Assembly (NCBI GenBank): GCA_964423595.1
Contig: CAYRFI010000006.1
Span: 8,458 to 72,457 of the forward strand
Origin: an uncultured Thermoanaerobaculia bacterium
GTDB taxonomy: Bacteria; Acidobacteriota; Thermoanaerobaculia; Thermoanaerobaculales; Sulfomarinibacteraceae
Direction: 5' to 3'
DNA length: 64,000 bases
In this document: positions 8,401 through 64,000 of the stretch, in pieces
Layout: each line of letters opens with the position of its first letter
Numbering within the stretch: the stretch's first letter is position 1
The notes under the pieces: model-generated
What the model was told of the DNA's origin: nothing
Databases searched by the model: none
The model's input: the letters and a program-made list of their open reading frames with translations, nothing else
Position numbers and translations under genes: made by a program

Positions 8401-8635
8401 GGGCCTCGGCAAGCTCGAGGCGCTGGCACAGGCCGGCCGCGTCCGGATGCGCCCGATCCTGATGACGAGCTTGACGACGATTTTCGGGCTCCTGCCAATG
8501 GCTCTCGGCCTCGGTGAGGGCGCCGAGCTGCGCACGCCGATGGCATTGACGGTGATCGGTGGGATGATGACCTCCACGTTGCTGACTCTACTGGTGGTCC
8601 CGGCGGTGTACGCGATCCTCGACAGGCGGTCGTAG
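5414..8635 (+). CDS. RND (AcrB/HAE1-type) efflux transporter, second paralog
   Basis: Begins MKIVDLSIRRPVTVFIFAVAAVVFG, a typical RND start. Also has GGLTLGVGLLVDNAIVVLEAV and NGAIVLVDYANQLRRQG. It is colinear with the pump at 599-3829. Codons upstream of 5414 lie in a repeat hairpin. Confidence 0.95.
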   Translation: MKIVDLSIRRPVTVFIFAVAAVVFGIVAFRNLAVNLLPDITYPSLTIRTTYEGTAPVEIESLLTRPIENAVGVVNNVVRVTSSSRADVSEVTLEFAWDTDMDFASLDVRDRLDRVRLPLEAEPPILLRFDPSLDPIMRVGLHGSDDLAQLRFMAEEDLKRAFERIDGVAAAVVSGGLEEEIQVELDERKLTALGLSVGQVASRLAAENVNITGGTLRDGRTEYLVRTLNEFVRPEDMRSIVVQRSGQAIIRLSDVARVYTGHKEREIITRINGDESVELAIYKEGGTNTVTVSDAVTRRLDELRAEIARVDPALRIDIITDQARYIRQAVREVLETALFGGLLAVLVLYLFLRSVKNTLIISISIPVSVVATFFLMYVAGISLNIMSLGGLTLGVGLLVDNAIVVLEAVQRKRDDGLDVVEAARIGTSEVGRAITASTLTTICVFVPIVFVEGVAAQLFRDQALTVAFSLMVSLVVALTVIPMLASRRLDPAHAVSTGSGDTPQPAPLRWLGVAVFTVTTRILGAALVVVRVIGRTSGAILKPILDLFDRALAATAAGYSRAISRVLGRPLAVVGVTVILLVGSLGLYRSLGSELIPELVQGEFYADLELPPGTRLEVTDRKLLDLTETADTIAGLKTVYTIAGTSNEQGGTAGELREYLGQITITLEPPVSREAEDAAMLQLRQAVDAENLALQHGNELEAGRRPALVARFGRPSYFSFKTAIEVEVRGFNLELLERLAAEVVARMQAIEGLTDISASTEGGHPELQVRLDRDRLAAYGLGIDDVAAVLRGMVQGDVATDITRTDRTIDIRVRAAERFRSSAEALANLTVTQVGGTSIPLSAVAEVLELEGPAEIRRADGTRVASITANLADRDLGSVTADIRRALEGMSWPSGYDWRLGGQEEEMATSFASMRLAFGLAVFMVYLVMASQFESLLHPFVIMFSVPFAVIGVLTTMWLFGVTVSVVSLIGFILLAGIAVNGAIVLVDYANQLRRQGLGKLEALAQAGRVRMRPILMTSLTTIFGLLPMALGLGEGAELRTPMALTVIGGMMTSTLLTLLVVPAVYAILDRRS

Positions 8636-8641
8636 CCCCGC

Positions 8642-8870
8642 AAGCGCTTCTCGCTTCGGCGAGAAAGGTGCCACCCGTCGCATTGTTTCACTGAGGTGCG
8701 CGTTGAGGCTTCGACGACACAGGTGCCACATTTCGCATTGTTTGCCCGAGAGGCTTGAACTGGCCGAAATGCGCGGAGATCAAACAATGCGAAGTGTGGC
8801 ACCATCCCCGCCGATGCCTCATCGCGCGCCTCATTGGAGGAGTGGCACCTGTGTCGTCGACGCGGCCTCG
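8642..8870. repeat. P elements (GGTGCCAC...CATTGT palindromic family), nested/tandem units
   Basis: The inner hairpin GGTGCCACATTTCGCATTGTTTG (8722-8744) / CAAACAATGCGAAGTGTGGCACC (8781-8803) has 1 mismatch. It is preceded by GCTTCGACGACACA, the inverse of the family tail. The outer left arm is at 8667-8691 and the outer right end GAGTGGCACCTGTGTCGTCGACGC is at 8839-8862. The left flank AAGCGCTTCTCGCTTCGGCG is shared with other copies. Confidence 0.8.
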
Positions 8871-8929
8871 TGCTTCCGAAACGGTGTCGTCTGGGATCGA
8901 TGGATGTTGACCCGCCGCCATCGTCGTGC

Positions 8930-8947
8930 TATACGCATATGCGCATA
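8930..8947. promoter_or_regulatory. Candidate ArgR operator (18-bp near-palindrome) at the argR start
   Basis: TATACGCAT|ATGCGCATA has half-sites matching 8/9. It abuts the AGGAGG of argR and lies just upstream of argR-argG-argH. ArgR family repressors bind 18-bp palindromic ARG boxes. Confidence 0.45.
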
Positions 8948-8956: not shown

Positions 8957-9427
8957 GTGCCACGCGATCGTTCCACCGTCCGTCGAATCCTGATCCGCCA
9001 ATTGCTGGCGGAGCGTGAGATCTCCAGCCAGAGCGGGCTCGCCAAGCTGTTGGGCGAGGCGGGTCATCCGGTTACCCAATCGACGGTCTCACGGGACCTC
9101 ACCGAGCTCGGCGCCACCAAGGCGGACGAGGGCACCGACCACGAAAGGTACGTTCTCGCCGATCAACAGCTATCGGCCGATGAGAGCTTCGACGAGCTGC
9201 GTCGTGTTCTCGAGGCCTACCTCGAAGGGGCTGTTCCCTCAGGCAACCTGGTGGTTTTGAAGGTCAGGTCGGCGACGGCCGGGACAGTGGCGGCGGCTCT
9301 CGACGCCACCCCGCCAAACGGAGTGGTTGGCACCCTGGCCGGCGATGACACGGTCGTCGTGATTGCCGACGACACCGTGGGTGGAGGACCCGTCGCGAAC
9401 ACGATCATGGGAATTCTGGAGGAATGA
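8957..9427 (+). CDS. argR: Arginine repressor ArgR
   Basis: Winged-HTH [31 protein letters not shown] and C-terminal oligomerisation/arginine-binding [15 protein letters not shown] 8957 follows AGGAGG (8947-8952). An in-frame ATG 8939 is an alternative start. Lies upstream of argG-argH. Confidence 0.85.
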
Positions 9428-19377: not shown

Positions 19378-19995
19378 ATGATTTTGGAAATCGATCCCGT
19401 CGAGCCGCAACCGTGGCTGTTGGCGCGCGCCGCGCAGATGCTACGCGGTGGCGGCGTCGTGGTCATGCCCACCGATACGGTTTACGGAATGACCTGCGGT
19501 ATCACTCACCACGAAGCGATCCGCCGGATTTACAAGCTCAAGGACATGGACCCCAAGAAGCCGTTGTCGATTCTAGTCGGCGACATGTCGATGGTCGGTC
19601 ACTATGCCCGCGGAGTCTCGACACCGGCCTTCAGGCTCCTCAAGCGGGTCCTCCCGGGACCCTACACCTTCATTTTCGAGGCCAGCCCCGAGGTGCCGAA
19701 GATCATGCTCCGCAAGCGCCGTACCGTCGGCATTCGCATGCCCGACAACCCGATCGCCCTCGCGCTGCTGGCGGAGATGGGCGAGCCCCTCCTCAGCTCC
19801 TCGATTCGCGGCCCCGAGCAGGATTTCGTCAACGACCCCGAGGAACTTGACGCCTCCCTCGGCGACGATGTCGACATGGTGATCGACGGCGGCATACTGC
19901 TGCCGGTGCCTTCGACCGTGGTCGATCTCTCAGGCTCTGAGCCAGTGCTGCTCCGCGAGGGCAAGGGCGACGTCGGAATCCTCGAGCTCTTCTAG
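19378..19995 (+). CDS. tsaC: L-threonylcarbamoyladenylate synthase (TsaC/YrdC family)
   Basis: LRGGGVVVMPTDTVYGMTCG, KPLSILV, LPGPYTFIF, VGIRMPDNPIALALL and SSS motifs. The upstream part of the tracked ORF (19189-19377) covers a repeat element and is rejected. Confidence 0.9.
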   Translation: MILEIDPVEPQPWLLARAAQMLRGGGVVVMPTDTVYGMTCGITHHEAIRRIYKLKDMDPKKPLSILVGDMSMVGHYARGVSTPAFRLLKRVLPGPYTFIFEASPEVPKIMLRKRRTVGIRMPDNPIALALLAEMGEPLLSSSIRGPEQDFVNDPEELDASLGDDVDMVIDGGILLPVPSTVVDLSGSEPVLLREGKGDVGILELF

Positions 19996-20125
19996 GCGCT
20001 TCCCGATTCGGCGTGCAAGGTGCCACCCCTCACATTGTCTGATGAACCACACCTCTCATCAGAAACGCCTCCCAGTCAGACAATGTGAGGGGTGGCACCT
20101 GTGTCGTCGAAGCCCCAAAGCGCAC
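19996..20125. repeat. P element, single complete unit (type example)
   Basis: Perfect 24-bp stem GGTGCCACCCCTCACATTGTCTGA (20019-20042) / TCAGACAATGTGAGGGGTGGCACC (20076-20099), flank GGCGCTTCCCGATTCGGCGTGCAA, and tail TGTGTCGTCGAAGCCCCAAAGCGC. Lies between the convergent tsaC and degT-like genes. Confidence 0.85.
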
Positions 20126-20144
20126 TCCCGCGCCCAGACCCGTC

Positions 20145-21254
20145 TCAGTTCGCGTAGAACTCCTCGATTGCGTGCACAACCTCTTCCTGCTCGCTCTCGG
20201 TCAACTCCGGAAACACTGGCAACGCCAGCACCTCTCGACTCGCCTCCTCGGCGACCGGGAATTCTCCCTGCTCGTGGCCGAGTCCCTCGAAGCACGGCTG
20301 AAGATGCAGAGGCAACGGATAGTAAACCGCCGCGCCGATGCCCCGATCCGCCAGAAATGCTCGCAACTCGTCCCGGCGCTGAACTCGCACGACGTATTGG
20401 TTGAAGGTGTGGCCGCGGCCGGAAACGGCCTCCGGCAGCTGCACCGTTTGCTCGAGACCCGCGTTGGCGAAGAGACGACGGTAGCGATCGGCGTTGGCGC
20501 GCCGCCCCTCGATCCACGCGCCAACATGCGGGAGCTTGACCCTGAGGATCGCCGCCTGCAGCGCATCGATACGGAAGTTCCCACCCACAACCGGGTGCTG
20601 GTAGGGGCCCGACTGACCGTGCATTCGCAGCTCGCGAAGGCTACGGTCAAGCTCGGCGTTGTCTGTTGTCACCAACCCACCGTCGCCAAAACAGCCCAGG
20701 TTTTTCGACGGAAAGAACGAAAACGCGCCCATGGCCCCGATCGAACCGACCTGGGCGCCATTGAAGTCCGCTCCCCAGGCCTGCGCGCAGTCCTCCACCA
20801 CCGGCACATCGCCCGCAACCTTCATGATCCGGTCCATCGCTGCCGCCTGACCAAAGAGATGGACCGGGATGATTGCGCGTGTCCGGTCGTTGATACTGAC
20901 ATGAAGGTGCTCCGGATCCATGCAGAAATCGACGGGATCGACATCGACAAAGACCGGGGTCGCGCCCAGGCGCGACACCACCCCGGCCGTCGCGAAGAAC
21001 GTAAAAGTCGGCAGGATCACCTCATCGCCGCGGCCAACGCCAAGCGCCATCAGAGCAACGAGCAGTGCGTCGGTGCCCGAGGTGACGCCAACGGCGTGTA
21101 ATGTTTCCAGCGCCACAGCCGATTCGCGCTCGAAAGCGTCGACCTCGGCGCCGAGGATGAATCGTTGTGAATCACAGACGCGATCGATGGCCTGGCGCAT
21201 CTCCTCACGCAGGGGTTCGTACTGTCGCGTCAGATCGAGCAGCGGCACGGGCAT
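20145..21254 (-). CDS. DegT/DnrJ/EryC1/StrS-family PLP-dependent sugar aminotransferase
   Basis: VPLLDLTRQYEPLREEM, GAEVDAFERE, FSFFPSKNLG (PLP-Lys region) and LALPVFPELT. ATG 21254 follows GGAGG at 8-nt spacing. Confidence 0.9.
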   Translation of the reverse strand: MPVPLLDLTRQYEPLREEMRQAIDRVCDSQRFILGAEVDAFERESAVALETLHAVGVTSGTDALLVALMALGVGRGDEVILPTFTFFATAGVVSRLGATPVFVDVDPVDFCMDPEHLHVSINDRTRAIIPVHLFGQAAAMDRIMKVAGDVPVVEDCAQAWGADFNGAQVGSIGAMGAFSFFPSKNLGCFGDGGLVTTDNAELDRSLRELRMHGQSGPYQHPVVGGNFRIDALQAAILRVKLPHVGAWIEGRRANADRYRRLFANAGLEQTVQLPEAVSGRGHTFNQYVVRVQRRDELRAFLADRGIGAAVYYPLPLHLQPCFEGLGHEQGEFPVAEEASREVLALPVFPELTESEQEEVVHAIEEFYAN

Positions 21255-28247: not shown

Positions 28248-28322
28248 TTGGCTGGGGCGGCAGGATTCGAACCTGCGAATGCCGGATCCAAAGACCGGTG
28301 GCTTACCGCTTGCCGACGCCCC
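28248..28322 (-). tRNA. tRNA-Gln (anticodon TTG)
   Basis: Minus-strand 75-nt cloverleaf: TGGGGCGTCGGCAAGCGGTAAGCCACCGGTCTTTGGATCCGGCATTCGCAGGTTCGAATCCTGCCGCCCCAGCCA. Acceptor is TGGGGCG/CGCCCCA, anticodon loop CTTTGGA, T-arm GCAGG-TTCGAAT-CCTGC, and CCA is encoded. Closely resembles E. coli tRNA-Gln (from memory). Confidence 0.9.
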
Positions 28323-28360
28323 AAGCGCCGGAGAGTATACAAGATTTCCGGACTGACGCC

Positions 28361-34361: not shown

Positions 34362-34479
34362 AAGCTGTCAGCTGTCAGCCGTCAGTTTCCCACCGCCCAC
34401 CCCCTCGGGATCGTTTTGCGGAAACACGGGAAGGGAGGGTGGGTCTGATAGCTGAGAGCTGATTGCTGAGAGCTAAAAG
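34356..34479. repeat. H7 element, AGCTGTC word type, with both C-run and G-run cores
   Basis: Arm GGCTGAA-AGCTGTC-AGCTGTC-AGCCGTC, core CCCACCGCCCACCCCCTCGGG, an 18-nt loop, GGGAAGGGAGGGTGGG (four G3 runs), and arm CTGATAG-CTGAGAG-CTGATTG-CTGAGAG-CTAAAAG. It overlaps the helicase stop codon. Confidence 0.75.
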
Positions 34480-34497
34480 GGATACCGCCTGCCAGTC

Positions 34498-37727: not shown

Positions 37728-37890
37728 AGCTGAATAGCCATTGGCTATTGGCTTTTGGCTTTCAGCCGTCAGCTTTCCGGTATCAGCCCTCGGCACTTGT
37801 TCATCGGCAGGGAGAGCTGACAGCTGATTGCCGAGAGCTTCGCGGGGTGGGTGGGGGCGCTAACGGCTAAAAGCGAAAGGCTCACAGCTT
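37728..37890. repeat. Composite H7 element(s), AGCTGNC word type
   Basis: A long left array (GCTGAAT-AGCCATT-GGCTATT-GGCTTTT-GGCTTTC-AGCCGTC-AGCTTTC...), then GAGAGCT-GACAGCT-GATTGCC-GAGAGCT, core CGCGGGGTGGGTGGGGGCG (37841-37859), then CTAACGG-CTAAAAG-CGAAAGG-CTCACAG. Lies in the divergent SulP/queG region. Confidence 0.7.
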
Positions 37891-37917: not shown

Positions 37918-38901
37918 ATGAGATACCCTCGACCCGTGGAAACCCTGACCACCGATCTCAAGCTCCGGGCGATCGAGGAGGGATTTGACCTTGTCGGCAT
38001 CGCTGGAGCCGGCAGGGCGCAAAGTGCCGGTAAGCTAGAGCGTTGGCTCGACGCCGGAATGCACGGCGAAATGAGTTACATGGTGCGCGCCCGTCGCGTC
38101 CGCTCTGATCCACGGCTGCTGCTGCCTGGATGCACCTCGGTGGTCGCAGTGGCCATGAGCTACCGCTGCTCCCAACCCGATTCGACCACGTTCGCGGCCG
38201 GCGACGGCCGTGTGTGGGTTTCCCGTTACGCGTGGGGGCGCGACTACCATCGCATCCTCAAAAAGAAACTGGTCAGACTCGGACGTTGGCTCGCGGAACA
38301 ACGGCCCGGCGCCCGTTGGCGGGCCTGTGTTGACACCGCACCGATCCTCGAACGTGAGTGGGCGGCACGGGCTGGGCTGGGTTGGATCGGGAAAAACACA
38401 CTGCTCCTCAATCGTGATTTCGGCTCCGAGCTTTTTCTGGGCATTCTCCTCACCGATCAACGACTGATTCCGGATGGACCCAGTCCCGAATACTGCGGCA
38501 GCTGTACGGCGTGCCTCGATGCCTGCCCCACCGCAGCCTTTGTCGAACCAAAGATGCTGGACGCCCGGCGATGCGTCGGCTACCTGACGGTGGAGCACAG
38601 ATCCTCCATTGCGGACGATCTGCGGCACAGTGTCGGTACGATGGTAGCCGGCTGCGACATCTGCCAGGAGGTGTGTCCGTGGAATCGGCGCGCCCCGGCC
38701 GATCTCCACCCGGAGTTCGCCCCGGATGCCCGGCGCCTCCGGCCGCAACTTGCAGACCTCGAGCGTCTCGATGAGGAAGGATATGGCGAGTGGCGAAAGG
38801 GAAGCGCTCTCAATCGCATCGCTTTCGCACAGTTTCGCCGCAATCTCGAGGTGATTCGAGAAAATCTCAATCACCGCGATGGGCTCATAGCTAACAGCTA
38901 A
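37918..38901 (+). CDS. queG: Epoxyqueuosine reductase
   Basis: Two 4Fe-4S motifs, CGSCTACLDACPTAAF and CDICQEVCPWN, plus GLGWIGKNTLLLN, typical of QueG. Confidence 0.9.
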   Translation: MRYPRPVETLTTDLKLRAIEEGFDLVGIAGAGRAQSAGKLERWLDAGMHGEMSYMVRARRVRSDPRLLLPGCTSVVAVAMSYRCSQPDSTTFAAGDGRVWVSRYAWGRDYHRILKKKLVRLGRWLAEQRPGARWRACVDTAPILEREWAARAGLGWIGKNTLLLNRDFGSELFLGILLTDQRLIPDGPSPEYCGSCTACLDACPTAAFVEPKMLDARRCVGYLTVEHRSSIADDLRHSVGTMVAGCDICQEVCPWNRRAPADLHPEFAPDARRLRPQLADLERLDEEGYGEWRKGSALNRIAFAQFRRNLEVIRENLNHRDGLIANS

Positions 38902-38920
38902 TTGCCAATAGCTTGTCAGG
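38886..38920. repeat. Solitary heptad-word array (NNNAGCT x5) spanning the convergent queG and infC stop codons
   Basis: CATAGCT-AACAGCT-AATTGCC-AATAGCT-TGTCAGG. No partner arm or G-run core is seen nearby. Confidence 0.4.
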
Positions 38921-39467
38921 TCTTCTTGCTCGGTCGCATGACCATGGTCAAATCACGACCCTCGAGCTTGGTCGGCATACGTTCGATGATCGCCACGTCC
39001 TCGAGATACTCCCCCACACGTTTGAGCAATTCGAACCCGTTCTCCGGCCGCCGCATCTCGCGCATCCGGAACATGATTGTGACCTTGACGTGCTTCCCCT
39101 GTTCGAGGAACTTGCGAGCGCGACGGGTCTTCGTTTCGAAGTCGTGAATGTTGATGTTGGGTCTGTATTTGACCTCTTTGACGTCGACCTGGTGTTGCTG
39201 TTTTTTGGCTTCGCGGGCTTTCTTTTCCTGCTCGTAACGGAAACGCCCGTAGTCCATGATCTTGCACACGATGGGTCGCGAAGTGGCTGCGACCTCGACG
39301 AGATCGAGGCCCTTCTCTTTGGCGAGCGCGAGGGCCTCTTCGACCGGCACAACTCCAACCTGATTTCCTTCGTCGTCAACCAGGCGTACCGGAGAGAGTC
39401 TGATTCGTTCATTGATACGCACCTGCGGTGCATCGGGGTCGTCACGAAACGCGAACTTTCTGATAAT
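38916..39467 (-). CDS. infC: Translation initiation factor IF-3
   Basis: INERIRLSPVRLVDDEGNQVGVV, KGLDLVEV, PIVCKIMDYGRFRYEQ and KEVKYRPNINIHD. The likely start is ATT 39467 (or ATC 39464) just after AAAGGAGG (39471-39478). In-frame GTG 39530 is the longest alternative. Confidence 0.9.
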   Translation of the reverse strand: MIRKFAFRDDPDAPQVRINERIRLSPVRLVDDEGNQVGVVPVEEALALAKEKGLDLVEVAATSRPIVCKIMDYGRFRYEQEKKAREAKKQQHQVDVKEVKYRPNINIHDFETKTRRARKFLEQGKHVKVTIMFRMREMRRPENGFELLKRVGEYLEDVAIIERMPTKLEGRDLTMVMRPSKKT

Positions 39468-45467: not shown

Positions 45468-45634
45468 CGAGCCGTGATCACCTCCGGGTCGTTCATACTC
45501 TCCCCAAGCTGGTGAGGCGGCCGGTGTCAAGGGTCGCGAAGCGACCGGCCACAGGCCGGCGGGCCCTTGATACCGGCCGGCTCGCCAGCTATTGCCCGCA
45601 TATTCATGAACGACCCGGAGGTGATCACGGCTCG
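45468..45634. repeat. 167-nt hairpin with perfect 29-bp terminal inverted repeat
   Basis: CGAGCCGTGATCACCTCCGGGTCGTTCAT (45468-45496) is the exact reverse complement of 45606-45634. The 109-nt interior has further pairing (GGCCGGTGTCAAGGG / CCCTTGATACCGGCC, 14/15; GGTCGC-GAA-GCGACC). Confidence 0.8.
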
Positions 45635-46908: not shown

Positions 46909-47910
46909 TCAGTCATGCACTGACTCGTCCGTCTCGAAGCCTGGGAACTCGACCCCGTTCTCGGAACGATTCCCCAGAAAAACCTTCAGGATCCCCTTTT
47001 TGACCATTTCTCGCCGGAACTCGCCCTCAAAATCTACTGGATGTAAATCTGTCGGCTCGAACACTTCATCTTCGTAATACCGGTCCCACCTGCCGTCTGC
47101 ATCCGCCCCAAAGCCGAAAACATCGACCTCGTCACAGACGTGCACCGCGACCATCAGGGCAATGAAACCGGTGGAGGGAAACTGTCCCTGCTCCTCCATC
47201 CAGTCCTCGTAAAGATATTTCACGAACTCCGGATGGATGATGCGCACTCGCCTGGGTTCCCAGCGAAGATCGTCTTCCACGAGAGAGAGTATCCAATCGA
47301 AAAGATCCTCGGTGTGCAGCGTCATGGGATTTATCAGGAGGAAGGCCCGCCGATCAGCCATGCCCCCTCCAAAGTCCGTGGGCCATGTTACGTGGTGGGT
47401 CGTCTTGTCCCCGACATCGGACTGAAAGTCAGCCGTGGGCGCTCGATTCACCCGAAAGACAACGTTGTGTGCATCGATCAGATTTCCGTAACCCGACCCG
47501 AGCAGGTTGCGGGACGCGCCAACAACCGCACAGATCCGCCTCGTGCGGGGACGCAAAAAGACCGGGGAGCGTCCCGAGATCCGTGAGAACATCCGCTGAG
47601 CGGCCGCCCGAGTCAAGCCTTTACGCTCCACGCGGGAAGCCCACCAATCGAACACTTCCGGCGAAACCCAGCCTTCACCGGGCTCCCAGAAGATATCCAC
47701 GCCTTCCCTGAACGATTCTGGGAATACCGTTTCGAGCCTCTGCTGCAAGGGACCCCTTATGGAGGTTTTCAGATCGCGGAATTCCGTCGGATTCGGCTCG
47801 TTCAACTCCTGGACGTCTGCTCGCTGCTGCCCAAGGACGATACATATCAAGACAGCCGCCGACACCAGCCCACTGCGACGGGGACCGTGGGATCTCATCA
47901 CCGGGGTCAT
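46909..47910 (-). CDS. GT29 (eukaryotic-type, ST3Gal-like) sialyltransferase homolog B, type-II membrane anchored
   Basis: N-terminal MTPVMRSHGPRRSGLVSAAVLICIVLG anchor. Sialyl motif L is CAVVGASRNLLGSGYGNLIDAHNVVFRVNRAPTADFQSDVGDKTTHH. Motif S is PSTGFIALMVAVHVCDEVDVFGFGAD. RYYED and HPVDFE correspond to motifs III and VS. GAGGGA lies 6-7 nt before the ATG. Confidence 0.85.
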   Translation of the reverse strand: MTPVMRSHGPRRSGLVSAAVLICIVLGQQRADVQELNEPNPTEFRDLKTSIRGPLQQRLETVFPESFREGVDIFWEPGEGWVSPEVFDWWASRVERKGLTRAAAQRMFSRISGRSPVFLRPRTRRICAVVGASRNLLGSGYGNLIDAHNVVFRVNRAPTADFQSDVGDKTTHHVTWPTDFGGGMADRRAFLLINPMTLHTEDLFDWILSLVEDDLRWEPRRVRIIHPEFVKYLYEDWMEEQGQFPSTGFIALMVAVHVCDEVDVFGFGADADGRWDRYYEDEVFEPTDLHPVDFEGEFRREMVKKGILKVFLGNRSENGVEFPGFETDESVHD

Positions 47911-47932: not shown

Positions 47933-48955
47933 TCAGTCCCGTGAAGACGCTTCGGCGCCGGAATGAGGGTCCGGGCGAATCCCCCGATAGACCTTGAGGA
48001 TCCCGTTTGCTTCCATCTCCTCGAGGAGCCGGGCCTCGATGCGGGCCGGATGGAACTGCGATACGTCCTCTGGAACGTCTTCGTAGTAGCGGTCCCACCT
48101 GCCGGAGGCGTCCGCGCCGAATCCAAATACGTCGACCTCTTCGCAGACATTCAGTGCGATCATCAGAGTAATGAAGCCGGTTGAGGGATAGGTCATCCAC
48201 CCTTTCGTCCAGTTCTCGTGCAGGTACATCACGAACTCCGGATGGATGATGCGCACGCGCAGGGGATCCCAGTGAATTTCCTCGTCCACGAGGTAGAGGA
48301 TCCGGTCGAAGACATCCTTGGTGTTGGCGGTGATCGGAGTCATCAGGAGGTAAGCCTCCCTGTCGTACTGCCACTCCTCGAGATCCCGCGGCCACATCAC
48401 GTGGTGGGTCGTCTTTTCTCCGACATCGGAATCATAATCATCGGTCGGCGCACGATTGATGCGAAACACGACGTCGTGAGCATCGATCAGTTCTCCGTAA
48501 TGCGATCCGAGCAGGTTGCGGGACGCGCCGACGACCGCGCAGATCTGTCTCTTGTCGGGTGTCGAGAAGACCGACGAGTCATCCGAAATGCACGAAAACA
48601 TCCGCTCAGCGGCCTCCGGTGTCACGCCATCGATGTCGCCCTCTTCTAAGTGGGCAGCCCACCATTCATACACCTCTTGCGAGATCCAGCCGTCATGCGG
48701 ACCCCAGAAGATGTCGACTCCGTTCTTGAAAGAGTTTGGGAAGGTCGTTGCAAGTCTCTGTTGCAAGGGCCCTCTGACGGAGGTTGAGGTGCGGTCGTTT
48801 TCTCCTTTCAGATAATCATGGCTGGCTTCCGGAATCTCGTACTCAGCATCCGGATGTTCCACTACCCGTCGCGACATGAGAAAGACTGAAATCGCGACGA
48901 CCGCTGCCAGAAGCATTACGTACCAGAGATTTCTGGGTCTCATGTTGCTGGCCAT
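47933..48955 (-). CDS. GT29 (eukaryotic-type, ST3Gal-like) sialyltransferase homolog A, type-II membrane anchored
   Basis: Anchor is MASNMRPRNLWYVMLLAAVVAISVFLM. Motif L is CAVVGASRNLLGSHYGELIDAHDVVFRINRAPTDDYDSDVGEKTTHH. Motif S is PSTGFITLMIALNVCEEVDVFGFGAD. RYYED and HPARIE follow. It is colinear with paralog B. Start is 48955 or 48943. Confidence 0.85.
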   Translation of the reverse strand: MASNMRPRNLWYVMLLAAVVAISVFLMSRRVVEHPDAEYEIPEASHDYLKGENDRTSTSVRGPLQQRLATTFPNSFKNGVDIFWGPHDGWISQEVYEWWAAHLEEGDIDGVTPEAAERMFSCISDDSSVFSTPDKRQICAVVGASRNLLGSHYGELIDAHDVVFRINRAPTDDYDSDVGEKTTHHVMWPRDLEEWQYDREAYLLMTPITANTKDVFDRILYLVDEEIHWDPLRVRIIHPEFVMYLHENWTKGWMTYPSTGFITLMIALNVCEEVDVFGFGADASGRWDRYYEDVPEDVSQFHPARIEARLLEEMEANGILKVYRGIRPDPHSGAEASSRD

Positions 48956-50219: not shown

Positions 50220-50327
50220 GGAGCCACCTTTAGCATTGTTGGCCTCAGCGATGGAATGACTTCGGCGACGGGATTCCAACAATGCAAAAGATGGCACCTG
50301 GCGCTACTCGATGAAGCGCTTTTCTCC
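50220..50327. repeat. P element, diverged copy nested between two heptad arrays
   Basis: GGAGCCACCTTTAGCATTGTTGG ... CCAACAATGCAAAAGATGGCACC, with tail TGGCGCTACTCGATGAAGCGC. Confidence 0.6.
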
Positions 50328-50345
50328 GGAAGCGCTGTGAGAACC

Positions 50346-50400
50346 CGCGGGTGGGCGGATCGAGTATCGAGCATCGAGTATCGGGCGGGTCGTGGGGCGG
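50346..50400. repeat. G-run core + heptad-word array (ATCGAGT type), ending at the dsbD stop
   Basis: GCGGGTGGGCGG, then ATCGAGT-ATCGAGC-ATCGAGT-ATCGGGC-GGGTCGT-GGGGCGG, with additional G-runs at the end. Confidence 0.55.
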
Positions 50401-52990: not shown

Positions 52991-53226
52991 CAGCGCTCCT
53001 CGCTTCGGCGTGCACGGTGCCACCCTTCACATTGTTTGATGAACCACTCTCACGCCGGAGGCGCTTTCAGGGCAAACAATGTGAAGAGTGGCACCTGTGT
53101 CATCGATGCAGCAACGCGCGCCTCATTGTACGGCAGACAATGCGAAGAGTGGCACCGGTGTCGCCGACTCGGCCAAGCGCTCTTGATGGGCGGGTGACAC
53201 CAGTGTCGTCGAAGCCCCAGCGCGCG
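52991..53226. repeat. P elements, one full unit plus two extra right-end modules, between rimM and trmD
   Basis: Flank CAGCGCTCCTCGCTTCGGCGTGCAC, then the stem GGTGCCACCCTTCACATTGTTTG (53016-53038) / CAAACAATGTGAAGAGTGGCACC (53073-53095). These are followed by CAGACAATGCGAAGAGTGGCACCGGTGTCGCCGA (53134-) and GGTGACACCAGTGTCGTCGAAGCCCCAGCGCGC (53192-53224). Confidence 0.8.
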
Positions 53227-53236
53227 TCTCGAGTCG

Positions 53237-56697: not shown

Positions 56698-56789
56698 GAA
56701 GCAGTCAGCAATCAGCAATCAGCTTTCAGCTCCCCCACCCACCCCTGGCGCCTTGAATGCTGACGGCTGATAGCTGATAGATAAGAGCT
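56698..56789. repeat. H7 element, AGCAATC word type, core in C-rich orientation
   Basis: Arm GAAGCAGTC-AGCAATC-AGCAATC-AGCTTTC-AGC, core TCCCCCACCCACCCCTGG (56731-56748), and arm GCTGACG-GCTGATA-GCTGATA-GATAAGA. It starts 1 nt after the LuxR-type gene stop. Confidence 0.75.
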
Positions 56790-56828
56790 TTTACCTAAGA
56801 GGTATAATCAGATCTGGAGGTCCAAACC

Positions 56829-57590
56829 ATGGCTCGGTTACGCGTTCTAGGCTTGGTTACGGCGATGTTCCTGGTGGCGGCAGTGTTGGCCGCAGCCCAG
56901 GGGTACGTGGTGATTCTCAAGAGTGGGCACAAAGTCCGGTGCAAGGAGCCGCTGCGCATCGAAGGATCGAACGCGATTCTCACCCTCGCGACCGGAACTC
57001 TCGCCAGCTACCCGCTCCAGCTCGTGGATCTCGTGGAAACCGAACGGTACAACCAGCTCGGCCTCGGCAGCGCGCTCTTGATCGAGGAGCTCTCGGTCCA
57101 GGGAACGCCGATCCCGACCCCGACCCCGTTCACGTCCCTCGGGCAGGTCGCTTCAATCGACGCCGGAGGAGGTGGTGCACCATCTCTTGGGACCACCGTC
57201 GAGCCGACCCCTGCGCCGACACCGGGCATCAAGCTGCAGTCTGAGAAGTACCACGACGCTCGGGTCGACCAGGCATTTTCGAAGATCTTCGACGAGAAGG
57301 AACTCCTCATCTACACAACCAGCAGCGGCACGCAGCCCGACCACTTTTTCGTCCAGGCCACAACCGACTCGGAGAAAGAGGTCTTCGACGCTCTGGAGAT
57401 CGTGGCTGAAGCGTTCGTCCTGATCAACCAAATCCACCCGGAAATTGCACCGGCGGCAGTCGAGCTGAAAATGGTCCAGACCTCGGGCAAACCGGCCGGT
57501 ACCTTTCGCCTCACGCCTGAGCTCGCGAAGGAGCTAACTGACGGTGACACTCCGACCCAAACGTTCTACATCAAGTACGTGATCTTCTAG
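56829..57590 (+). CDS. Secreted protein of unknown function
   Basis: MARLRVLGLVTAMFLVAAVLAAAQG signal, a Pro/Thr linker (PIPTPTPF...EPTPAPTPG), and coding-type GC3 bias. No family recognised. Confidence 0.6.
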   Translation: MARLRVLGLVTAMFLVAAVLAAAQGYVVILKSGHKVRCKEPLRIEGSNAILTLATGTLASYPLQLVDLVETERYNQLGLGSALLIEELSVQGTPIPTPTPFTSLGQVASIDAGGGGAPSLGTTVEPTPAPTPGIKLQSEKYHDARVDQAFSKIFDEKELLIYTTSSGTQPDHFFVQATTDSEKEVFDALEIVAEAFVLINQIHPEIAPAAVELKMVQTSGKPAGTFRLTPELAKELTDGDTPTQTFYIKYVIF

Positions 57591-57685
57591 GGTGCCACGT
57601 TTCGCACTGTTGCATTACCAGCATCGCGTGTCCCGAGTGTTGATCGATACGGTAACGCAACAGTGCGAAACGTGGCACCTGTGAT
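57590..57685. repeat. P element, variant (CACTGTTGC stem)
   Basis: GGTGCCACGTTTCGCACTGTTGC / GCAACAGTGCGAAACGTGGCACC is a perfect 23-bp stem, extendable to 29 bp with 1 mismatch. The tail is TGTGATAACGG. It begins at the last base of the upstream stop codon. Confidence 0.7.
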
Positions 57686-57691: not shown

Positions 57692-59008
57692 ATGAGTGAT
57701 ACGGATGTCGCCGTTGTTGGCGCTGGTCTCGCCGGTCTGACGGCGGCTCTCCGGCTCACCGAGGCGGGTCACCAGGTCAAGGTGTTCGAACGCTATCCAC
57801 GCCCCGGTGGACTTGCCCGCGTCATGGAGGTCGAGGGCGAACTCCTGGAAGCCTTCTATCACCACCTCTTTACCAGCGACACATCGTACGTCGCTCTCGC
57901 AGAGGAACTCGGAGTCGCCGGCCTCATCGACTGGCTCCCCTCGCGGATGGGAATTTGGACGGAAGGCAGGTCGTGGGACTTCGGAACCCCACAGTCGTTG
58001 CTCCGTTTCCGACCCCTTTCGCTGCTCGACAAGGCCCGTTTCGCGATCTCGACCCTGCTTCTCCAGCGCAGCAAAGACCCCACCCGGTTCGAGAACGTCA
58101 CCGCTTGCGACTGGATCCGCCGCCACCAGGGGGAGAGGGTGTGGCAGAAAGTTTGGGGACCGCTCTTCCATCAGAAGTTTGCCGAGGATGCTGAAAAGGT
58201 CGCGATGGTATGGTTGTGGGGAAAGCTCTGTCTGCGCGGAAAGTCGAGGTCAGCGTCCGGCATGGGCGAACGGCTCGGCTATATGCGGGGCTCGTTTGCC
58301 AAACTCGTCGAGGCGCTCGAAGGCCGGCTCAAAGACGGCGGCACCGAGCTGTTTCTGAGCGAAGCGGTACAGCGCATCGAGAGCGGCGAAGGCAACTTCA
58401 CGATCCATACCCGCGGTTCTTCATGGACCGCAAGCCGGGTCCTGGCCGCGGTTCCGGTGCCAGATTATCTCGAGATCGCAGGGCATCTCGTGTCTGATAA
58501 TGAACGGAGCAACCTCTCCGATCTCCGAGCAACCGGCGCTATCTGCACGATCCTGGAGCTCGAGCACTCACTGACCTCCTACTACTGGCTCAATATCGCT
58601 GACCCCAACATGCCCTTCGGCGGCCTCATTGAACACACCAACTACATCCCGAAGGAACGATACGGCGGTCGCCACCTCCTCTATATTTCGAACTACCTCT
58701 TCCCGGACCACCCACTGTTTCATGCGCCGAAGAAAGAGGTCGTTGCGACCTACCTCCCGGCCCTGGCTCGGGTCAACCCGGCGTTCGAACCCTCGTGGAT
58801 CCTGAAGAGCCACCATTTCAGGGCCGAGTACGCGCAACCGGTGGTACCTGTCGGCTATCGGAAACGGATTCCGCCGTTCCGCTCGAGCGTGCCTGGACTC
58901 TACCTCTGCACGATGGCGCAGATCTTTCCTGAAGACCGCGGCCAGAACTACGCGGTCGCCTATGGGGAGAAGGTCGCGAAGGCCATGCTCGGCGATATCG
59001 GAAAATGA
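57692..59008 (+). CDS. FAD/NAD(P)-dependent oxidoreductase (amine oxidase / phytoene-desaturase superfamily)
   Basis: The dinucleotide-binding start VAVVGAGLAGLTAALRLTEAGHQVKVFERYPRPGGLA and the overall length are typical of the CrtI/HemY-like superfamily. Confidence 0.85.
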   Translation: MSDTDVAVVGAGLAGLTAALRLTEAGHQVKVFERYPRPGGLARVMEVEGELLEAFYHHLFTSDTSYVALAEELGVAGLIDWLPSRMGIWTEGRSWDFGTPQSLLRFRPLSLLDKARFAISTLLLQRSKDPTRFENVTACDWIRRHQGERVWQKVWGPLFHQKFAEDAEKVAMVWLWGKLCLRGKSRSASGMGERLGYMRGSFAKLVEALEGRLKDGGTELFLSEAVQRIESGEGNFTIHTRGSSWTASRVLAAVPVPDYLEIAGHLVSDNERSNLSDLRATGAICTILELEHSLTSYYWLNIADPNMPFGGLIEHTNYIPKERYGGRHLLYISNYLFPDHPLFHAPKKEVVATYLPALARVNPAFEPSWILKSHHFRAEYAQPVVPVGYRKRIPPFRSSVPGLYLCTMAQIFPEDRGQNYAVAYGEKVAKAMLGDIGK

Positions 59009-59183
59009 TGTTCTCCTCGAATTTGTGCTCTCAATTTTCCAGCATCACCAATCGCGGAAGCGAAAACTGAGATCACAAATCTGAACAGAAGAATGCTCAC
59101 GTCGCGCGATCCGGACCGCCTATGGTGTACCATTGGGCCGCCCGCGGAAAATGGGCACGGATAGAGGTTGGAGGCAAAAATCT

Positions 59184-61537: not shown

Positions 61538-63264
61538 ACATGCGCTGGACCCAGACGTTCATTTATACACTGCGCCAGGATCCTTCGGACGCCGAGGTCG
61601 TGTCACACCGATTGATGACGCGGGCCGGACTCATCTCGAAGGTCGCGGCGGGTATTTACAACTACCTGCCGCTCGGTTGGAGATCGCTGTCCAAGCTCCA
61701 GACGATCATCCGCGAAGAGATGGAACGGGCCGGATCCGCAGAGTTGGTCATGCCCGCCATCCAACCGGCAGAGCTGTGGCAGGAGTCCGGGCGATGGTTC
61801 GAATACGGGCCTGAGTTGCTGCGGATGAACGATCGCCACGAGCGAGATTTCTGCTTCGGCCCGACGCATGAGGAAGTGATCACCGACATGGTGCGGCGGA
61901 CGGTCACTTCATACCGCCAGCTGCCGGTCAACCTCTTCCAGATCCAAACCAAGTTTCGCGACGAGATAAGGCCCCGCTTCGGTCTCATGCGCGGGCGCGA
62001 GTTCGTCATGAAGGACGCCTACACCTTTCACGCCGATGCTGAGGATCTCGACAAGGCCTATCGCGCCATGGAACAGGCCTACTGCCGGATTTTCGAGCGT
62101 TGCGGTCTCGGCTATATCCCTGTCGAGGCCGACACCGGCAACATCGGCGGCTCCGAGTCGCACGAGTTCATGGTCCTCGCCGAAACCGGAGAAGACGCGA
62201 TCCTCTCGTGCCCCGCCTGCCATTACGGTGCCAACGTCGAGAAGGCGGAGGCGGGACCGGTCGCTGCGGCACCGGATTGGCCGCTCGATCGCAGTGACCG
62301 GCCCGAAACCGTCAACACCCCGGAGATGCGCACGGTCGAAGAGGTGGCCGAATTCCTGGGCATTGCGCCGGCCCACCTGATCAAAACCCTAATCTTCGAA
62401 ACCGAAAAGGAGTTCGTGGCGGTCCTGATCCGTGGCGACCTCGAGGTCAACGAGGTCAAACTCAAAAACGAGCTCGGCTGCACCCACCTCCAACTCGCTT
62501 CGGAGGCAAAGATCGAGGAGATCACAGGCGGTCCGCAGGGCTTCTCGGGGCCGGTCGGCCTCGAGGGCGTGCGGCTCATCTCCGACCCGTCCGTCATGGA
62601 TCTGGAGGTAGCGGCCACCGGCGCTAACGCCGCCGACGCACATCTCGTCGGCGTGGAGCCGGGCCGCGACTTCGAGCCGTCCGCGGTGGTGGAGATCCGG
62701 CTCGCCACGGCCGGCGATCCGTGTCCTTCGTGCGGCACGGATCTGATCGAAAAACGCGGCATCGAGGTCGGTCACATCTTCAAGCTTGGCACCAAGTACT
62801 CCGAAAAGATGGGCTGCCGCTTTCAGGACGCGGATGGCAACGATCAACCGATGATCATGGGTTGCTACGGTCTCGGGGTCGGCCGAACCGTGGCCGCCGC
62901 AGTCGAGCAGAACCACGATGAGAAGGGGATCGTCTGGCCATTGCCCCTGGCGCCGTACGAGGTGGTGTTGGTTGTCCTCAACGCCGACAAGCCGGCGGTG
63001 GTGGAGGTCGCCGAGAAGCTCTACGTCGAGCTCAAAGAGGCCGGTATCGACGTCCTCTTCGATGACCGCCCCGAGCGCCCGGGCGTCAAATTCAATGACA
63101 TGGATCTCATCGGATTCCCGGTGCGCGTGGTGCTCGGCGGGCGTGGCCTCGAGGCCGGCGAGGTCGAGCTCAGTTTGCGCCGCGACGGCGACAAGCGGCC
63201 GACACCGATTGCGGAGATGGTGCCGGCCGTTCAAGCCCTTCTCGAGAAGCTCCGAAGCGAGTAA
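61534..63264 (+). CDS. proS: Prolyl-tRNA synthetase (bacterial type with INS editing domain)
   Basis: SHRLMTRAGLISKVAAGIYNYLPLGW, FRDEIRPRFGLMRGREFVMKDAYTF (motif 2) and GCYGLGVGRTVAA (motif 3), plus a C-terminal anticodon-binding domain. Confidence 0.95.
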   Translation: MNMRWTQTFIYTLRQDPSDAEVVSHRLMTRAGLISKVAAGIYNYLPLGWRSLSKLQTIIREEMERAGSAELVMPAIQPAELWQESGRWFEYGPELLRMNDRHERDFCFGPTHEEVITDMVRRTVTSYRQLPVNLFQIQTKFRDEIRPRFGLMRGREFVMKDAYTFHADAEDLDKAYRAMEQAYCRIFERCGLGYIPVEADTGNIGGSESHEFMVLAETGEDAILSCPACHYGANVEKAEAGPVAAAPDWPLDRSDRPETVNTPEMRTVEEVAEFLGIAPAHLIKTLIFETEKEFVAVLIRGDLEVNEVKLKNELGCTHLQLASEAKIEEITGGPQGFSGPVGLEGVRLISDPSVMDLEVAATGANAADAHLVGVEPGRDFEPSAVVEIRLATAGDPCPSCGTDLIEKRGIEVGHIFKLGTKYSEKMGCRFQDADGNDQPMIMGCYGLGVGRTVAAAVEQNHDEKGIVWPLPLAPYEVVLVVLNADKPAVVEVAEKLYVELKEAGIDVLFDDRPERPGVKFNDMDLIGFPVRVVLGGRGLEAGEVELSLRRDGDKRPTPIAEMVPAVQALLEKLRSE

Positions 63265-63283
63265 GCACCTCCCGCTTCGGCAA

Positions 63284-63587
63284 CCCCAATGAGGAGCGTT
63301 TCTCGCTGCGACGAGTCAGGTGCCACTTGTCGCATTGTTACAAGAGCGCTCAGGACAGCAGGGTGACAACGACAATGCGACATGTGGCACCGGTGTCGTC
63401 GACGCGGCCATGCGCTTCTCATGGGGGTGTCCCAAGCCCCAATGCGCTCCTCATTGGGGGCAGCAGGGTGCCATCTTTTGCATTGTTCGGATTCATCGCC
63501 TCACAATCTGGTCACGCACTTCAGCCGAACAATGCGAGAGGTGGCTCCTGTGTCGTCGATGCGGCAAAGCGCTCCTCAAGAGGCCCC
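63284..63587. repeat. P elements, two tandem units showing the full three-helix architecture
   Basis: Unit 1: CCCCAATGAGGAGCG / GCTGCGACGAGTCA / GGTGCCACTTGTCGCATTGTT ... ACGACAATGCGACATGTGGCACC / GGTGTCGTCGACGC / GCGCTTCTCATGGGGG. Unit 2: GGGTGCCATCTTTTGCATTGTTCGG ... CCGAACAATGCGAGAGGTGGCTCC TGTGTCGTCGATGC...AAGCGCTCCTCA. Lies between the convergent proS and MidA-like genes. Confidence 0.8.
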
Positions 63588-64000
63588 TCAATCCAGCGAA
63601 AGCGCTTGGCTCGCGACCGCGATCATCTCCCCCTTCGCCTGCACGAGCATCTTGAAATCCGATCCCATCCCCTCCGGGTCGAGGAGGCGTTTGACCTCCT
63701 GGCGGGCGGAGACTGTAGCGGCATCGAGTTCGGCCTCGATGCCCATACCGCGATCCTCGAGCTCGTCAGCGAGGCCCGCCCGTACAAGGAACTCGGCCAG
63801 CGGCCACAGCCCGATCTCCCGCCATCCGGCGCCGCAAGCAGCACGCCGAAGGTCGTCCCAGTTGACGTGGGCCGTCAGGTCGATCTCCCCGGGTGATTGC
63901 AGGGAATCACGGCCGAGCTGGTGGCGACGGAAGGTCGCCAGTGACCCTCCCCTCCTCCCATGCGGATCGTAAAGCCTCCGCGTTTCGTAGCCGTAGTCGA
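63588..64000 (-). CDS. C-terminal part of a MidA/NDUFAF7-like (DUF185) SAM-dependent methyltransferase; 5' end beyond window
   Basis: Not in the ORF track because no start lies in the window. The minus-strand frame is open from the window edge (first complete codon at 63998) to TGA at 63588-63590. It reads DYGYETRRLYDPHG...GEIDLTAHVNWDDLRRAA...WPLAEFLVRAGL..., resembling the DYGY...DLTAHVDF...Q..FL end of the MidA family (from memory). Confidence 0.6.
   Translation of the reverse strand, partial: DYGYETRRLYDPHGRRGGSLATFRRHQLGRDSLQSPGEIDLTAHVNWDDLRRAACGAGWREIGLWPLAEFLVRAGLADELEDRGMGIEAELDAATVSARQEVKRLLDPEGMGSDFKMLVQAKGEMIAVASQALSLD

Follow-up and report, generated by a model that had tools for sequence, protein, structure and literature searches.

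REPINs are inverted pairs of repetitive extragenic palindromic (REP) sequences and are thought to be mobilised by single-copy REP-associated tyrosine transposases (RAYTs) of the IS200/IS605 superfamily (PMC3337134, PMC3116915). The Y1 transposases of that superfamily take as substrates hairpins in the single-stranded lagging-strand template, and their action produces no duplications (PMC6006769). For REPs of the CGTC type a dedicated transposase is not known, and Acidobacteria possess RAYT-like 'TIRYT' genes flanked by repeated terminal inverted repeats (TIRs; PMC3733652). Here we describe 'P elements', a repeat family found in a 64,000-nt window (the whole stretch analysed, to which all coordinates refer) of contig CAYRFI010000006.1 (GCA_964423595.1) from an uncultured Thermoanaerobaculia bacterium of the Sulfomarinibacteraceae. 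The family is real, abundant and hairpin-forming, and it lies in the gaps just after genes. On balance, P elements are probably lineage-specific, non-autonomous, hairpin-forming intergenic repeats of the REP, REPIN or miniature inverted-repeat transposable element (MITE) kind, belonging to the Sulfomarinibacteraceae (Acidobacteriota, Thermoanaerobaculia).

A hairpin-forming repeat family in the gaps after genes

An initial annotation of the window had listed six loci with a shared order of motifs. The 20-nt half-site GGTGCCAC-N3-TCRCATTGT, searched on two strands as GGTGCCACNNNTCRCATTGT with up to three mismatches, matches the window 16 times; 100 dinucleotide-preserving shuffles of the window gave 0.26 +/- 0.54 matches, and none of them got to 16, an excess of about 60-fold. 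A covariance model of the core, R1, built on 34 diverse cores (alignment A2; 82 positions, 23 base pairs) and run over the window with filters off, recovers the listed loci as exactly seven complete core hairpins (Table 1), with none further at E<=1. Reading each locus bears out the six loci and their motif order, and by the R1 scan the list is also complete. Solo or remnant arms lie at 8667-8686, 8830-8849, 53137-53156 and 53192-53201. Copies occur about once per 9 kb, with fairly even spacing. The perfect stems that had been noted in two copies are present (24 bp at 20019-20099, 23 bp at 57591-57679), as is a loop sequence common to two copies, GATGAACCAC, in the loops at 20041 and 53037.

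Folded singly, units give rods (dG -25 to -45 kcal/mol, z-scores -2.7 to -8.8). Locus 1 gives a single nested rod of 220 nt (dG -73.1 kcal/mol, z -7.8), so that the earlier description of one unit within another is a fair one, though the outer right arm is without its ACAATGCGA box. All seven hairpins are intergenic and most adjoin stop codons. The statement that every copy starts within a few nucleotides of a stop codon holds for the loci at 8642, 19996, 57590 and 63284, that is, for the four of six that begin 0-20 nt from a stop; the hairpin of locus 5 directly follows its TAG (57588-57590). It does not hold for the 52991-53229 cluster, which ends 8 nt short of the stop (53237) of a minus-strand RimM gene, or for the 50220 unit, which lies about 74 nt past the stop (50401) of a minus-strand gene.

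Searches with the full hairpin pattern found the same element in at least 213 further stretches, at least 93 of them in a one-genome-per-species scan and at least 120 in a metagenome scan. These 213 related element-bearing stretches, designated by L-numbers (L005, L024, L086 and so on), amount with the window to 1.4 Mb. A first set of 127 non-redundant units came from the window and 93 genome loci, and a later set of 264 from 214 sequences; the sequence-conserved family of the initial annotation is therefore upheld and is far larger than the window shows. The number of copies must be higher than counted, because the search pattern misses a divergent arm subfamily (GGTGCCAC-CT-TCACAATTGT ... 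ACAATTGTGA-AA-GTGGCACC) found at L067 4280-4365 and L015 2940-3010. Extrapolated from the window, the genome-wide total is probably several hundred copies per genome of about 3.4 Mb (genome-size estimate from PMC8528874).

Among the matches listed, nearly all are from Ca. Sulfomarinibacter kjeldsenii, Ca. Sulfomarinibacter sp., Sulfomarinibacteraceae or metagenome-assembled genomes (MAGs) of Thermoanaerobaculales or Thermoanaerobaculia, and many of the metagenome stretches are contigs named as marine sediment metagenomes. Carriers among these listed matches with other labels are L051 (CALOEL010000007.1, Alphaproteobacteria), L081 (CALOEF010000069.1, Planctomycetaceae) and L091 (JBDGWG010000122.1, Gemmatimonadota). 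Over 1.7 kb, the 'alphaproteobacterial' contig L051 matches an S. kjeldsenii contig at 89.7% identity, which suggests that its taxonomic label is wrong. The best syntenic relatives of the window among the loci gathered are 75-89% identical to it, so that the window represents another species of this lineage. The element is absent from PLSDB plasmids and IMG/VR viral contigs. Rfam holds no matching family; the sole above-threshold match in the window is a tRNA gene (28252-28323, minus strand), and a relaxed search of 63200-63650 gave only miRNA-precursor hairpins far below threshold. The literature searched for Sulfomarinibacter, for REPs or REPINs in Acidobacteria and for the motif contains no description of the repeat. 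The view that this is not a described family is thus sustained by every source consulted, and the family is apparently undescribed before now.

The element measures some 80-220 bases overall, around a core that is typically 81 nt long (range 73-93 nt). The core stem of 20-24 bp is made by two inverted 20-nt arms, each consisting of two boxes (8 bp and 9 bp) and a 3-bp spacer; 16-17 of the 20 arm positions are invariant, so that terminal inverted repeats are present. The variable apical region is 33-50 nt long (42 nt in 137 of the 264 units, 40-41 nt in 77 and 33 nt in 30), the loops of a 'naked' subfamily being 49-53 nt. Flank modules stand on both sides of the core in 201 of the 264 units, on one side in 53 and on neither in 10, and in the 201 the tags face the core. 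The left module has the consensus AGCGCTTCTCGCTTCG(G/A)CG and the right module (T/G)GTGT-CG(T/C)C-GAnGC..GCGCTyCTCATTGG. With conservation taken over 100-230 flank-oriented units, the consensus (A1) reads AGCGCTTCTCGCTTCGGCGnGCAn / GGTGCCAC CCT TCGCATTGT / TTGAATTCGTCGC...variable...GGGCAA / ACAATGCGA AGA GTGGCACC / TGTGTCGTCGAnGCnGCnACGCGCTyCTCATTGG. The make-up is modular, with core, flank and tail recombining; the window clusters at 52991-53229 and 63284-63587 are mosaics.

Pairing statistics were taken over 100 units. The core helix is 95.3% paired and seven of its pairs show compensatory changes, at the R/Y box position, at the second and third N3 positions and at three stem-extending pairs. 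At the R/Y box position, G-C is found in 64 units and A-U in 33, and only three are non-Watson-Crick. The first N3 position behaves differently: 57% are non-pairs (mostly C.A), 21% U.G and 22% Watson-Crick, which makes it a fixed irregularity and not a covarying pair. The covariation claimed for all N3 positions therefore stands at the second and third and at the R/Y box, and fails at the first, where mismatch or wobble is conserved; the ATT/AGT pair cited as an example itself includes a T.G. Both strands get nearly equal covariance-model scores, and a strand-specific selection on RNA (U.G over C.A on the mRNA strand) was discarded at 14 against 19, which is not significant. The core mostly keeps one orientation relative to its flanks: of 56 informative units, 40 have the C.A on the top strand as the flanks define it (P = 0.002), the reverse also being common.

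Pairing between the inverted, REP-like flank modules lengthens the rod to 130-220 nt. Between modules the flank helix is 79.6% paired, against 67% when each module folds alone into a local hairpin of 5-6 bp; an ungapped pairing scan found only a 4-bp, G.U-rich helix. The proposal that complementary flank and tail close each unit into a rod is thus generally sound, but not for the 57591 unit, which is without flank modules, or the 50220 unit, which has only a tail-like module. A flank module adjoins an arm in fixed polarity in 135 of about 179 regular-expression matches, the rest being chance matches in genes and extra tandem tails, and no 'empty' flank palindrome (CTTCGRCG-N3-18-CGYCGAAG) occurs in the 213 loci. 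Because the module nearly always stands beside an arm and empty palindromes are not found, we take the composite, and not the core alone, to be the usual unit, and we have rejected the idea that the core was inserted into a pre-existing, abundant flank palindrome. The ends of the element could not be defined from near-identical paralogues: in seven pairs of at least 93% identity the similarity extends 31-91 nt to the left and 24-73 nt to the right.

Orientation, turnover and probable origin

By the gene calls of a self-trained codon-usage caller of open reading frames (ORFs), which are crude, 78 of the 264 units lie in convergent intergenic regions (191 such regions in the background, occupancy about 41%), 99 in tandem regions (593, about 17%) and 11 in divergent regions (158, about 7%); 28 units overlap an ORF call by more than 20 nt and 48 lie too close to a contig end. 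Where the initial annotation had allowed that enrichment in intergenic and stop-proximal positions might be lacking, the opposite is seen, convergent and tandem regions being enriched. In an earlier count of 111 units, in sequence that is about 84% coding, the core lay a median of 43 nt from the nearest stop, most of this gap being taken by the flank module. A T tract 3' of the hairpin is found at no window unit. Between 48 and 64 kb, canonical terminator-like sites are at chance level (15, against 12.0 +/- 3.3) and none of the 15 coincides with an element.

The orientation of a unit, as defined by its flanks, shows no preference relative to the genes beside it (49 of 92 for tandem regions, P = 0.60), nor is it linked to gene-strand bias (P = 0.65). 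GC skew at third codon positions (GC3 skew) is strongly negative on the sense strand (-0.11 to -0.12), and in 38 of 48 loci the genes of the two strands disagree in skew. In this lineage, uncorrected local GC skew is therefore a better guide to how genes are oriented than to the direction of replication; raw skew was dropped as a proxy for replication and the comparison redone with the coding-strand effect removed. The flank-defined top strand is then the strand of negative residual GC3 skew in 93 of 137 cases combined (P = 3e-5), made up of 55 of 76 for genome loci (P = 1e-4) and 38 of 61 for independent metagenome loci (P = 0.07), in the same direction. The window has a residual skew of -0.053, and of its seven oriented units six are '+'. 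We read this bias as replication-linked. The orientation of the core mismatch relative to skew was weak and internally inconsistent (37 of 95) and was not used.

Copies are gained, lost and replaced between relatives. L149 carries the naked unit at 57591-57679, whereas the orthologous intergenic region of L086, 38 bp long, does not; a unit of L086 is lacking at window 58977-59122, the 50220 unit is lacking in the syntenic intergenic region of L024, and a unit of L021 is lacking in L061. Among 106 pairs of syntenic intergenic regions (about 80% flank identity), 20 hold orthologous units, with a loop identity of 0.85, and 70 hold different family members, with a loop identity of 0.555 compared with 0.637 for random pairs in the better orientation. 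The pair L011 and L015, with flanks 90% identical, is a clear case of replacement. Such replacement, together with presence and absence at syntenic sites, means that individual copies are dispensable. In the MAG GMC8, a composite of about 190 nt occurs on four unlinked contigs in versions 1-2 bases apart, in unrelated surroundings, and rare arm irregularities (GGTGCCAT / GTGGCTCC) are common to at least five loci. Of the two signs of insertion that the initial annotation had proposed to seek in relatives, presence/absence polymorphism was found and target-site duplications were not, either at naked units (window 57591, L016 5331, L086 3677, L005, L081, L014) or in filled/empty comparisons between species.

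Identity across the 20 orthologous pairs is 99.7% in the arm boxes, 85.1% in the loops and 81.5% in the flanking DNA. The arms are therefore constrained in place and not merely young. The earlier alternative of selection on pairing or recent mobility is supported in both parts, by compensatory changes and by turnover, but recent mobility alone fails to explain the conservation of the arms.

High copy number, restriction to one lineage, a site in 3' intergenic space, a rod-like palindrome with conserved ends, gain, loss and replacement, occasional near-identical copies, nesting, the lack of duplications, indifference to transcription and the orientation bias together point to a non-autonomous mobile or copy-exchanging repeat of the REP/REPIN/MITE kind. 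Indifference to transcription combined with replication-linked orientation is the outcome to be expected of an IS200/IS605-type Y1 (HUH) enzyme, because such enzymes act on single-stranded hairpins of the lagging-strand template. We suppose that copying and exchange proceed by way of a hairpin formed in single-stranded DNA, and that a trans-acting enzyme, encoded elsewhere in the genome, may read the arm boxes and the fixed irregularity. The leading candidate would be a HUH/Y1 transposase, RAYT- or TIRYT-like. Insertions would persist mainly in harmless 3' intergenic space, where the survivors would be transcribed as stable hairpins of 3' untranslated regions (3' UTRs), possibly co-opted by the host. 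A co-opted role in exonuclease protection, termination or stop-proximal translational attenuation, the last being reported for E. coli REPs (cited in PMC12306157), would be plausible.

Several observations weigh against this explanation. The E. coli TnpArep sequence (verified against PDB 4ER8), used as a phmmer query on all six-frame ORFs of the window and the 213 loci, found no homologue at E<=1-10 in these 1.4 Mb of element-bearing DNA, RAYT genes being typically single-copy; the earlier statement that the window holds no such transposase thus extends to the loci fetched. A regular expression for HUH...YxxNP gave no match. Pairs of solo arms 300-4000 nt apart, which might bound a larger element, were sought as a parent and are lacking in the 214 sequences, and the GTAG tag of classical RAYT substrates is absent from the consensus of oriented units. 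The skew association uses noisy 8-kb estimates and its replicate set amounts to a trend. Near-identical copies are few and the loops of random pairs are about 64% alike, so that amplification must be mostly old. Finally, a purely selfish, decaying element would not be expected to keep its arms 99.7% identical; this implies constraint in situ, with either a host function or a continuing interaction with a trans factor as its source. A reading that we put forward as speculative, and on present evidence doubtful, is that the composite is a self-contained REPIN-like replicator, in which arm boxes and C.A/T.G irregularity would form the recognition hairpin of a single-strand-specific enzyme, of the HUH or another class, in the Sulfomarinibacteraceae, and the inward CG(T/C)C would be cleavage or guide sites. 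If true, it would account for both the skew-tracking orientation and the identity of the arms in vertically inherited copies, and would give a handle on what mobilises CGTC-type REPs (PMC3733652).

Host function at the 3' ends of genes could itself be primary, and spread secondary, if P elements were orientation-independent terminators, barriers to 3' exonucleases or stop-proximal, ribosome-stalling attenuators. We consider this unlikely, but it draws on much of the evidence given above: the start of four window loci within a few nucleotides of a stop, the enrichment in convergent and tandem and depletion in divergent regions, the occurrence of either orientation, as expected of a symmetric hairpin, and the conservation of orthologous arm boxes. 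Canonical terminator-like sites at chance level between 48 and 64 kb would leave room for another 3'-end signal, and in E. coli, ribosomes are stalled by REPs that lie no more than 15 nt from a stop codon (cited in PMC12306157). A terminator or stabiliser, however, requires pairing and not 17 invariant arm positions with a fixed mismatch, and the T/U tract is lacking after the stem. Presence/absence and replacement at syntenic sites show copies to be dispensable, and a bias that follows residual skew instead of transcription suggests behaviour at the level of DNA and not of RNA. P elements might also act strand-specifically as RNA, either as genes for structured non-coding RNAs or as cis-regulatory RNAs. 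Strong, significant folding (z to -8.8) and covariation are what such RNAs would show, but near-equal model scores on both strands, orientation neutral to neighbouring genes, only sub-threshold miRNA-hairpin noise in Rfam, and hundreds of copies with variable apical regions make this very improbable.

E. coli BIMEs (bacterial interspersed mosaic elements) bind IHF or gyrase, and by analogy P elements might be arrayed sites for a host protein, DNA-binding or nucleoid-structuring, that reads the arm boxes in duplex or cruciform DNA. The strict conservation of both arms across species that differ by about 20% elsewhere, the palindromic two-box architecture and the fairly even spacing in the window are in agreement with this; we nevertheless give it little credence, since no candidate protein has been identified, close species gain, lose and replace copies, and the compensatory box changes (G-C to A-T, 64 against 33, with three intermediates) favour intramolecular pairing over a duplex code. 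Hairpins with a conserved irregularity and a variable centre that follow the ends of ORFs also recall attC or other site-specific recombination sites that mark gene cassettes, the more so in L037, which carries five copies in 8 kb at roughly gene-length spacing. Here the genes between copies (EamA, QueF, PPK2, TrkA and an aminotransferase) are syntenic housekeeping genes, as are those in the window, the RYYYAAC/GTTRRRY core is missing, copies stand in both orientations, and no integrase was found among the genes scanned with Pfam, a scan that covered part of the ORFs. We therefore rejected an integron-like cassette array in L037 and regard the attC explanation as already effectively refuted.

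P elements are an acidobacterial family with a CGTC-like tag in the flanks, a central hairpin under stronger conservation than those flanks and a measurable orientation bias relative to residual GC skew, features by which the mobilisation mechanism becomes testable. The repeat shapes almost every second convergent intergenic region in abundant, uncultured, sulfur-cycling Acidobacteriota of the seafloor. In annotation it should help to separate true 3' UTR structure from repeats, and it explains contig breaks and mis-called ORFs, such as those at the 28 units that overlap calls. It is also diagnostic for the lineage and usable as a marker in binning checks of contigs labelled Alphaproteobacteria, Planctomycetaceae or Gemmatimonadota.

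Feature map of the window

The components of the six loci are collected in Table 1. Genes beside them encode an AcrB-type pump, ArgR, Sua5/TsaC, a DegT aminotransferase, a radical-SAM/SPASM protein, DsbD, RimM, an amine oxidase and ProRS. At locus 6 the small hairpin at 63437-63459 doubles as the left junction of unit 2, and the subtype of core hairpin 2 recurs at the syntenic position in L040 and, alongside other subtypes, in L121.

Table 1. Components of the six P-element loci of the window
Feature	Position	Strand	Remark
Locus 1, left flank module (AAGCGCTTCTCGCTTCGGCGAGAAA)	8642-8666	+	Starts 7 nt past TAG stop (8633-8635) of AcrB-type gene
Locus 1, outer left arm GGTGCCAC-CCG-TCGCATTGT	8667-8686	+	Intact partner arm not nearby
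Locus 1, tail module of inner unit, inverted (...GCGCGTTGAGGCTTCGACGACACA)	8690-8721	-	
Locus 1, inner core hairpin, ATT/AGT, 42-nt loop	8722-8803	.	Unit on minus strand by its flanks
Locus 1, left flank module of inner unit, inverted (ATCCC-CGCCGATGCCTCATCGCGCGC)	8804-8829	-	
Locus 1, degenerate outer right arm (CTCATTGGAGGA-GTGGCACC), then tail module TGTGTCGTCGACGCGGCCTCGTGCTTC	8830-8876	+	Pairs with 8642-8686 in 220-nt rod
Locus 2, left flank module	19996-20018	+	Directly follows TAG stop (19993-19995) of Sua5/TsaC-type gene
Locus 2, core hairpin, perfect 24-bp stem, CCC/GGG	20019-20099	.	
Locus 2, tail module TGTGTCGTCGAAGCCCCAAAGCGCAC	20100-20125	+	Stop of convergent DegT-type gene at 20145
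Locus 3, degenerate core hairpin (GGAGCCAC.../...GATGGCACC), 3 stem mismatches	50220-50298	.	90% identical to L051 copy
Locus 3, tail-like module TGGCGCTACTCGATGAAGCGC and small GCGCTT...AAGCGC hairpin	50299-50336	+	
Locus 4, left flank module CAGCGCTCCTCGCTTCGGCGTGCAC	52991-53015	+	
Locus 4, core hairpin, CCT/AGA, plus-strand C.A mismatch	53016-53095	.	
Locus 4, three successive tail modules	53096-53229	+	Interleaved with solo right arm 53137-53156 and arm remnant GGGTGACACC 53192-53201
Locus 5, 'naked' core hairpin, GTT/AAC, perfect 23-bp stem, 49-nt loop, without flank modules	57591-57679	.	
Locus 6, outer helix arm CCCCAATGAGGAGCG and left flank module TTTCTCGCTGCGACGAGTCA	63284-63318	+	Stop of ProRS gene at 63264
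Locus 6, core hairpin 1, 33-nt-loop subfamily, TTG/CAT	63319-63391	.	
Locus 6, tail module of unit 1 (GGTGTCGTCGACGCGGCCATGCGCTTCTCATGGGGG), then small hairpin CCCCAATG-CGCTCCT-CATTGGGG (63437-63459)	63392-63466	+	
Locus 6, core hairpin 2, rare subtype (GGTGCCAT-CTT-TTGCATTGT / ...GTGGCTCC)	63467-63548	.	
Locus 6, tail module TGTGTCGTCGATGCGGCAAAGCGCTCCTCAAGAGG	63549-63587	+	Ends at stop (63588) of convergent minus-strand gene

Two sequence differences adjoin copies of the element. Between the 50220 unit and the stop of the DsbD-type gene lies a tandem ATCGAGT/ATCGAGC array (50355-50385, about four copies) that is missing in the L024 orthologue. About 1.27 kb of extra sequence separates the element from the convergent DegT-type gene in L010 (3432-4698) and L025 (6196-7462) and is absent from window 20038-20145; this is a gene-sized indel adjoining the repeat.

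A second family of intergenic repeats is found at 34364-34484, 37751-37890, 38884-38923 and 56699-56806. It consists of imperfect heptamer runs (GCTGTCA / AGCTGAT / CAGCAAT) around inverted C-rich and G-rich blocks (CCCACCCACCCC ... GGGTGGGTGGGG). In the GMC8 loci, P elements are adjoined by comparable runs of heptamers (AAATTCG, ATTCCTA).

Just upstream of the ArgR-family repressor gene (8957-9427) is a near-palindrome, TATACGCATATGCGCATA (8930-8947), which is conserved in the orthologues from L071 and L090, unlike the intergenic sequence around it; it is probably the repressor's own operator. The segments 47069-47767 and 48078-48785 stand in tandem, about 1009 nt from start to start and 73-79% identical, and are probably a pair of paralogous genes. 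A perfect 29-nt inverted repeat (45468-45496 and 45606-45634) has 109 nt between its arms, each of which reads ATGAACGACCCGGAGGTGATCACGGCTCG outward, as if an identical 5' end were common to two divergent genes.

Comparison with known repeat systems

P elements share with REPINs the arrangement of inverted short repeats and a spacer that form a long hairpin, the presence of hundreds of intergenic copies, restriction to a lineage with largely vertical inheritance, the absence of target duplications, and subfamilies within the copy population (Bertels & Rainey 2011; PMC3116915, PMC3337134). They differ in having no GTAG tag and no RAYT in the DNA examined. In P elements, moreover, it is the central hairpin that is most conserved and not the outer REP-like modules, and the core stands in both orientations relative to the flanks and is occasionally flankless.

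MITE-type palindromes include the Correia elements of Neisseria, enterobacterial ERIC/IRU, SMAG of Stenotrophomonas and cyanobacterial Nezha. Like these, P elements are intergenic, imperfect palindromes of 80-200 nt with conserved terminal inverted repeats, are polymorphic between strains, are able to nest, and are presumably transcribed into hairpins. They differ in the lack of a visible target-site duplication and of a parent insertion sequence with the same ends in the 214 sequences, and in a modular architecture that is nearer to E. coli BIMEs. With BIMEs they have in common mosaic clusters, repeated tails, solo arms, alternating orientations and a location at the 3' ends of genes, but there is no sequence relationship, the central hairpin of P elements is much longer, and no binding proteins are known for them.

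The TIRs linked to TIRYT genes come from the same host phylum; their arms bear no relation to GTAG REPs, and self-complementary and dimeric ones occur among them. The arm start GGTGCCAC fits six of eight positions of the published GGGGWSAS motif, an imperfect match (PMC3733652), and no TIRYT gene is linked to the arms studied here. The arms GGTGCCAC/GTGGCACC are set apart from attC by the absence of its core, by their occurrence in both orientations and by the housekeeping genes between them, and the whole unit is set apart from intrinsic terminators by the lack of a T tract after any copy. Three other identities were considered for these arms and dropped: a sigma-54 promoter, on sequence, as the -12 element does not fit; an inverton, for which the 40-nt spacer is too short to be an invertible switch; and, also weighed from the sequence, a restriction site.

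Of the architectures described so far, P elements come closest to head-to-head dimers of CGTC-tagged REPs, in which the spacer is conserved and sometimes structured (Di Nocera, De Gregorio & Rocco 2013; PMC3733652). P elements have a conserved, inward-facing CG(T/C)C on both flank modules. As in the CGTC family, the modules stand head to head around a conserved spacer in the 20-100-bp range that is itself a stem-loop, units lie between tandem and convergent ORFs, each module has a short conserved tail (TCA here, CCA in CGTC REPs), no associated transposase is known, and 'empty' outer palindromes are not found, as in H. neapolitanus and A. variabilis (PMC3733652). The tail consensus reads tGTGTCGtCGA; conservation reaches at least 90% at its conserved G, T and C positions, and the T/C position yields CGTC or CGCC. 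The superfamily itself has an unpaired tag at one end of the repeat, admits the tag variants TGTC and CCTC, and has an autonomous stem of 8-9 bp that starts with A/T pairs, a 4-5-nt loop and a CCA tail (PMC3733652). The flank module of P elements lacks such a stem (4-6 bp at best, 67% paired), its stem would start with G-C/A-T and its tail is TCA; Acidobacteriota are not among the phyla reported for CGTC repeats (PMC3733652), and the spacer is here more conserved than the 'REP'. Because autonomous stem-loop and CCA tail are both wanting, we say that the flanks resemble the CGTC superfamily and do not file them as members. The evidence does not point to a new kind of system: with P elements a lineage-specific family is added to a well-known kind of bacterial repeat, distinguished by composite REP-like flanks with a CGTC-like tag, a core more conserved than those flanks, a fixed mismatch and an orientation bias that follows residual skew.

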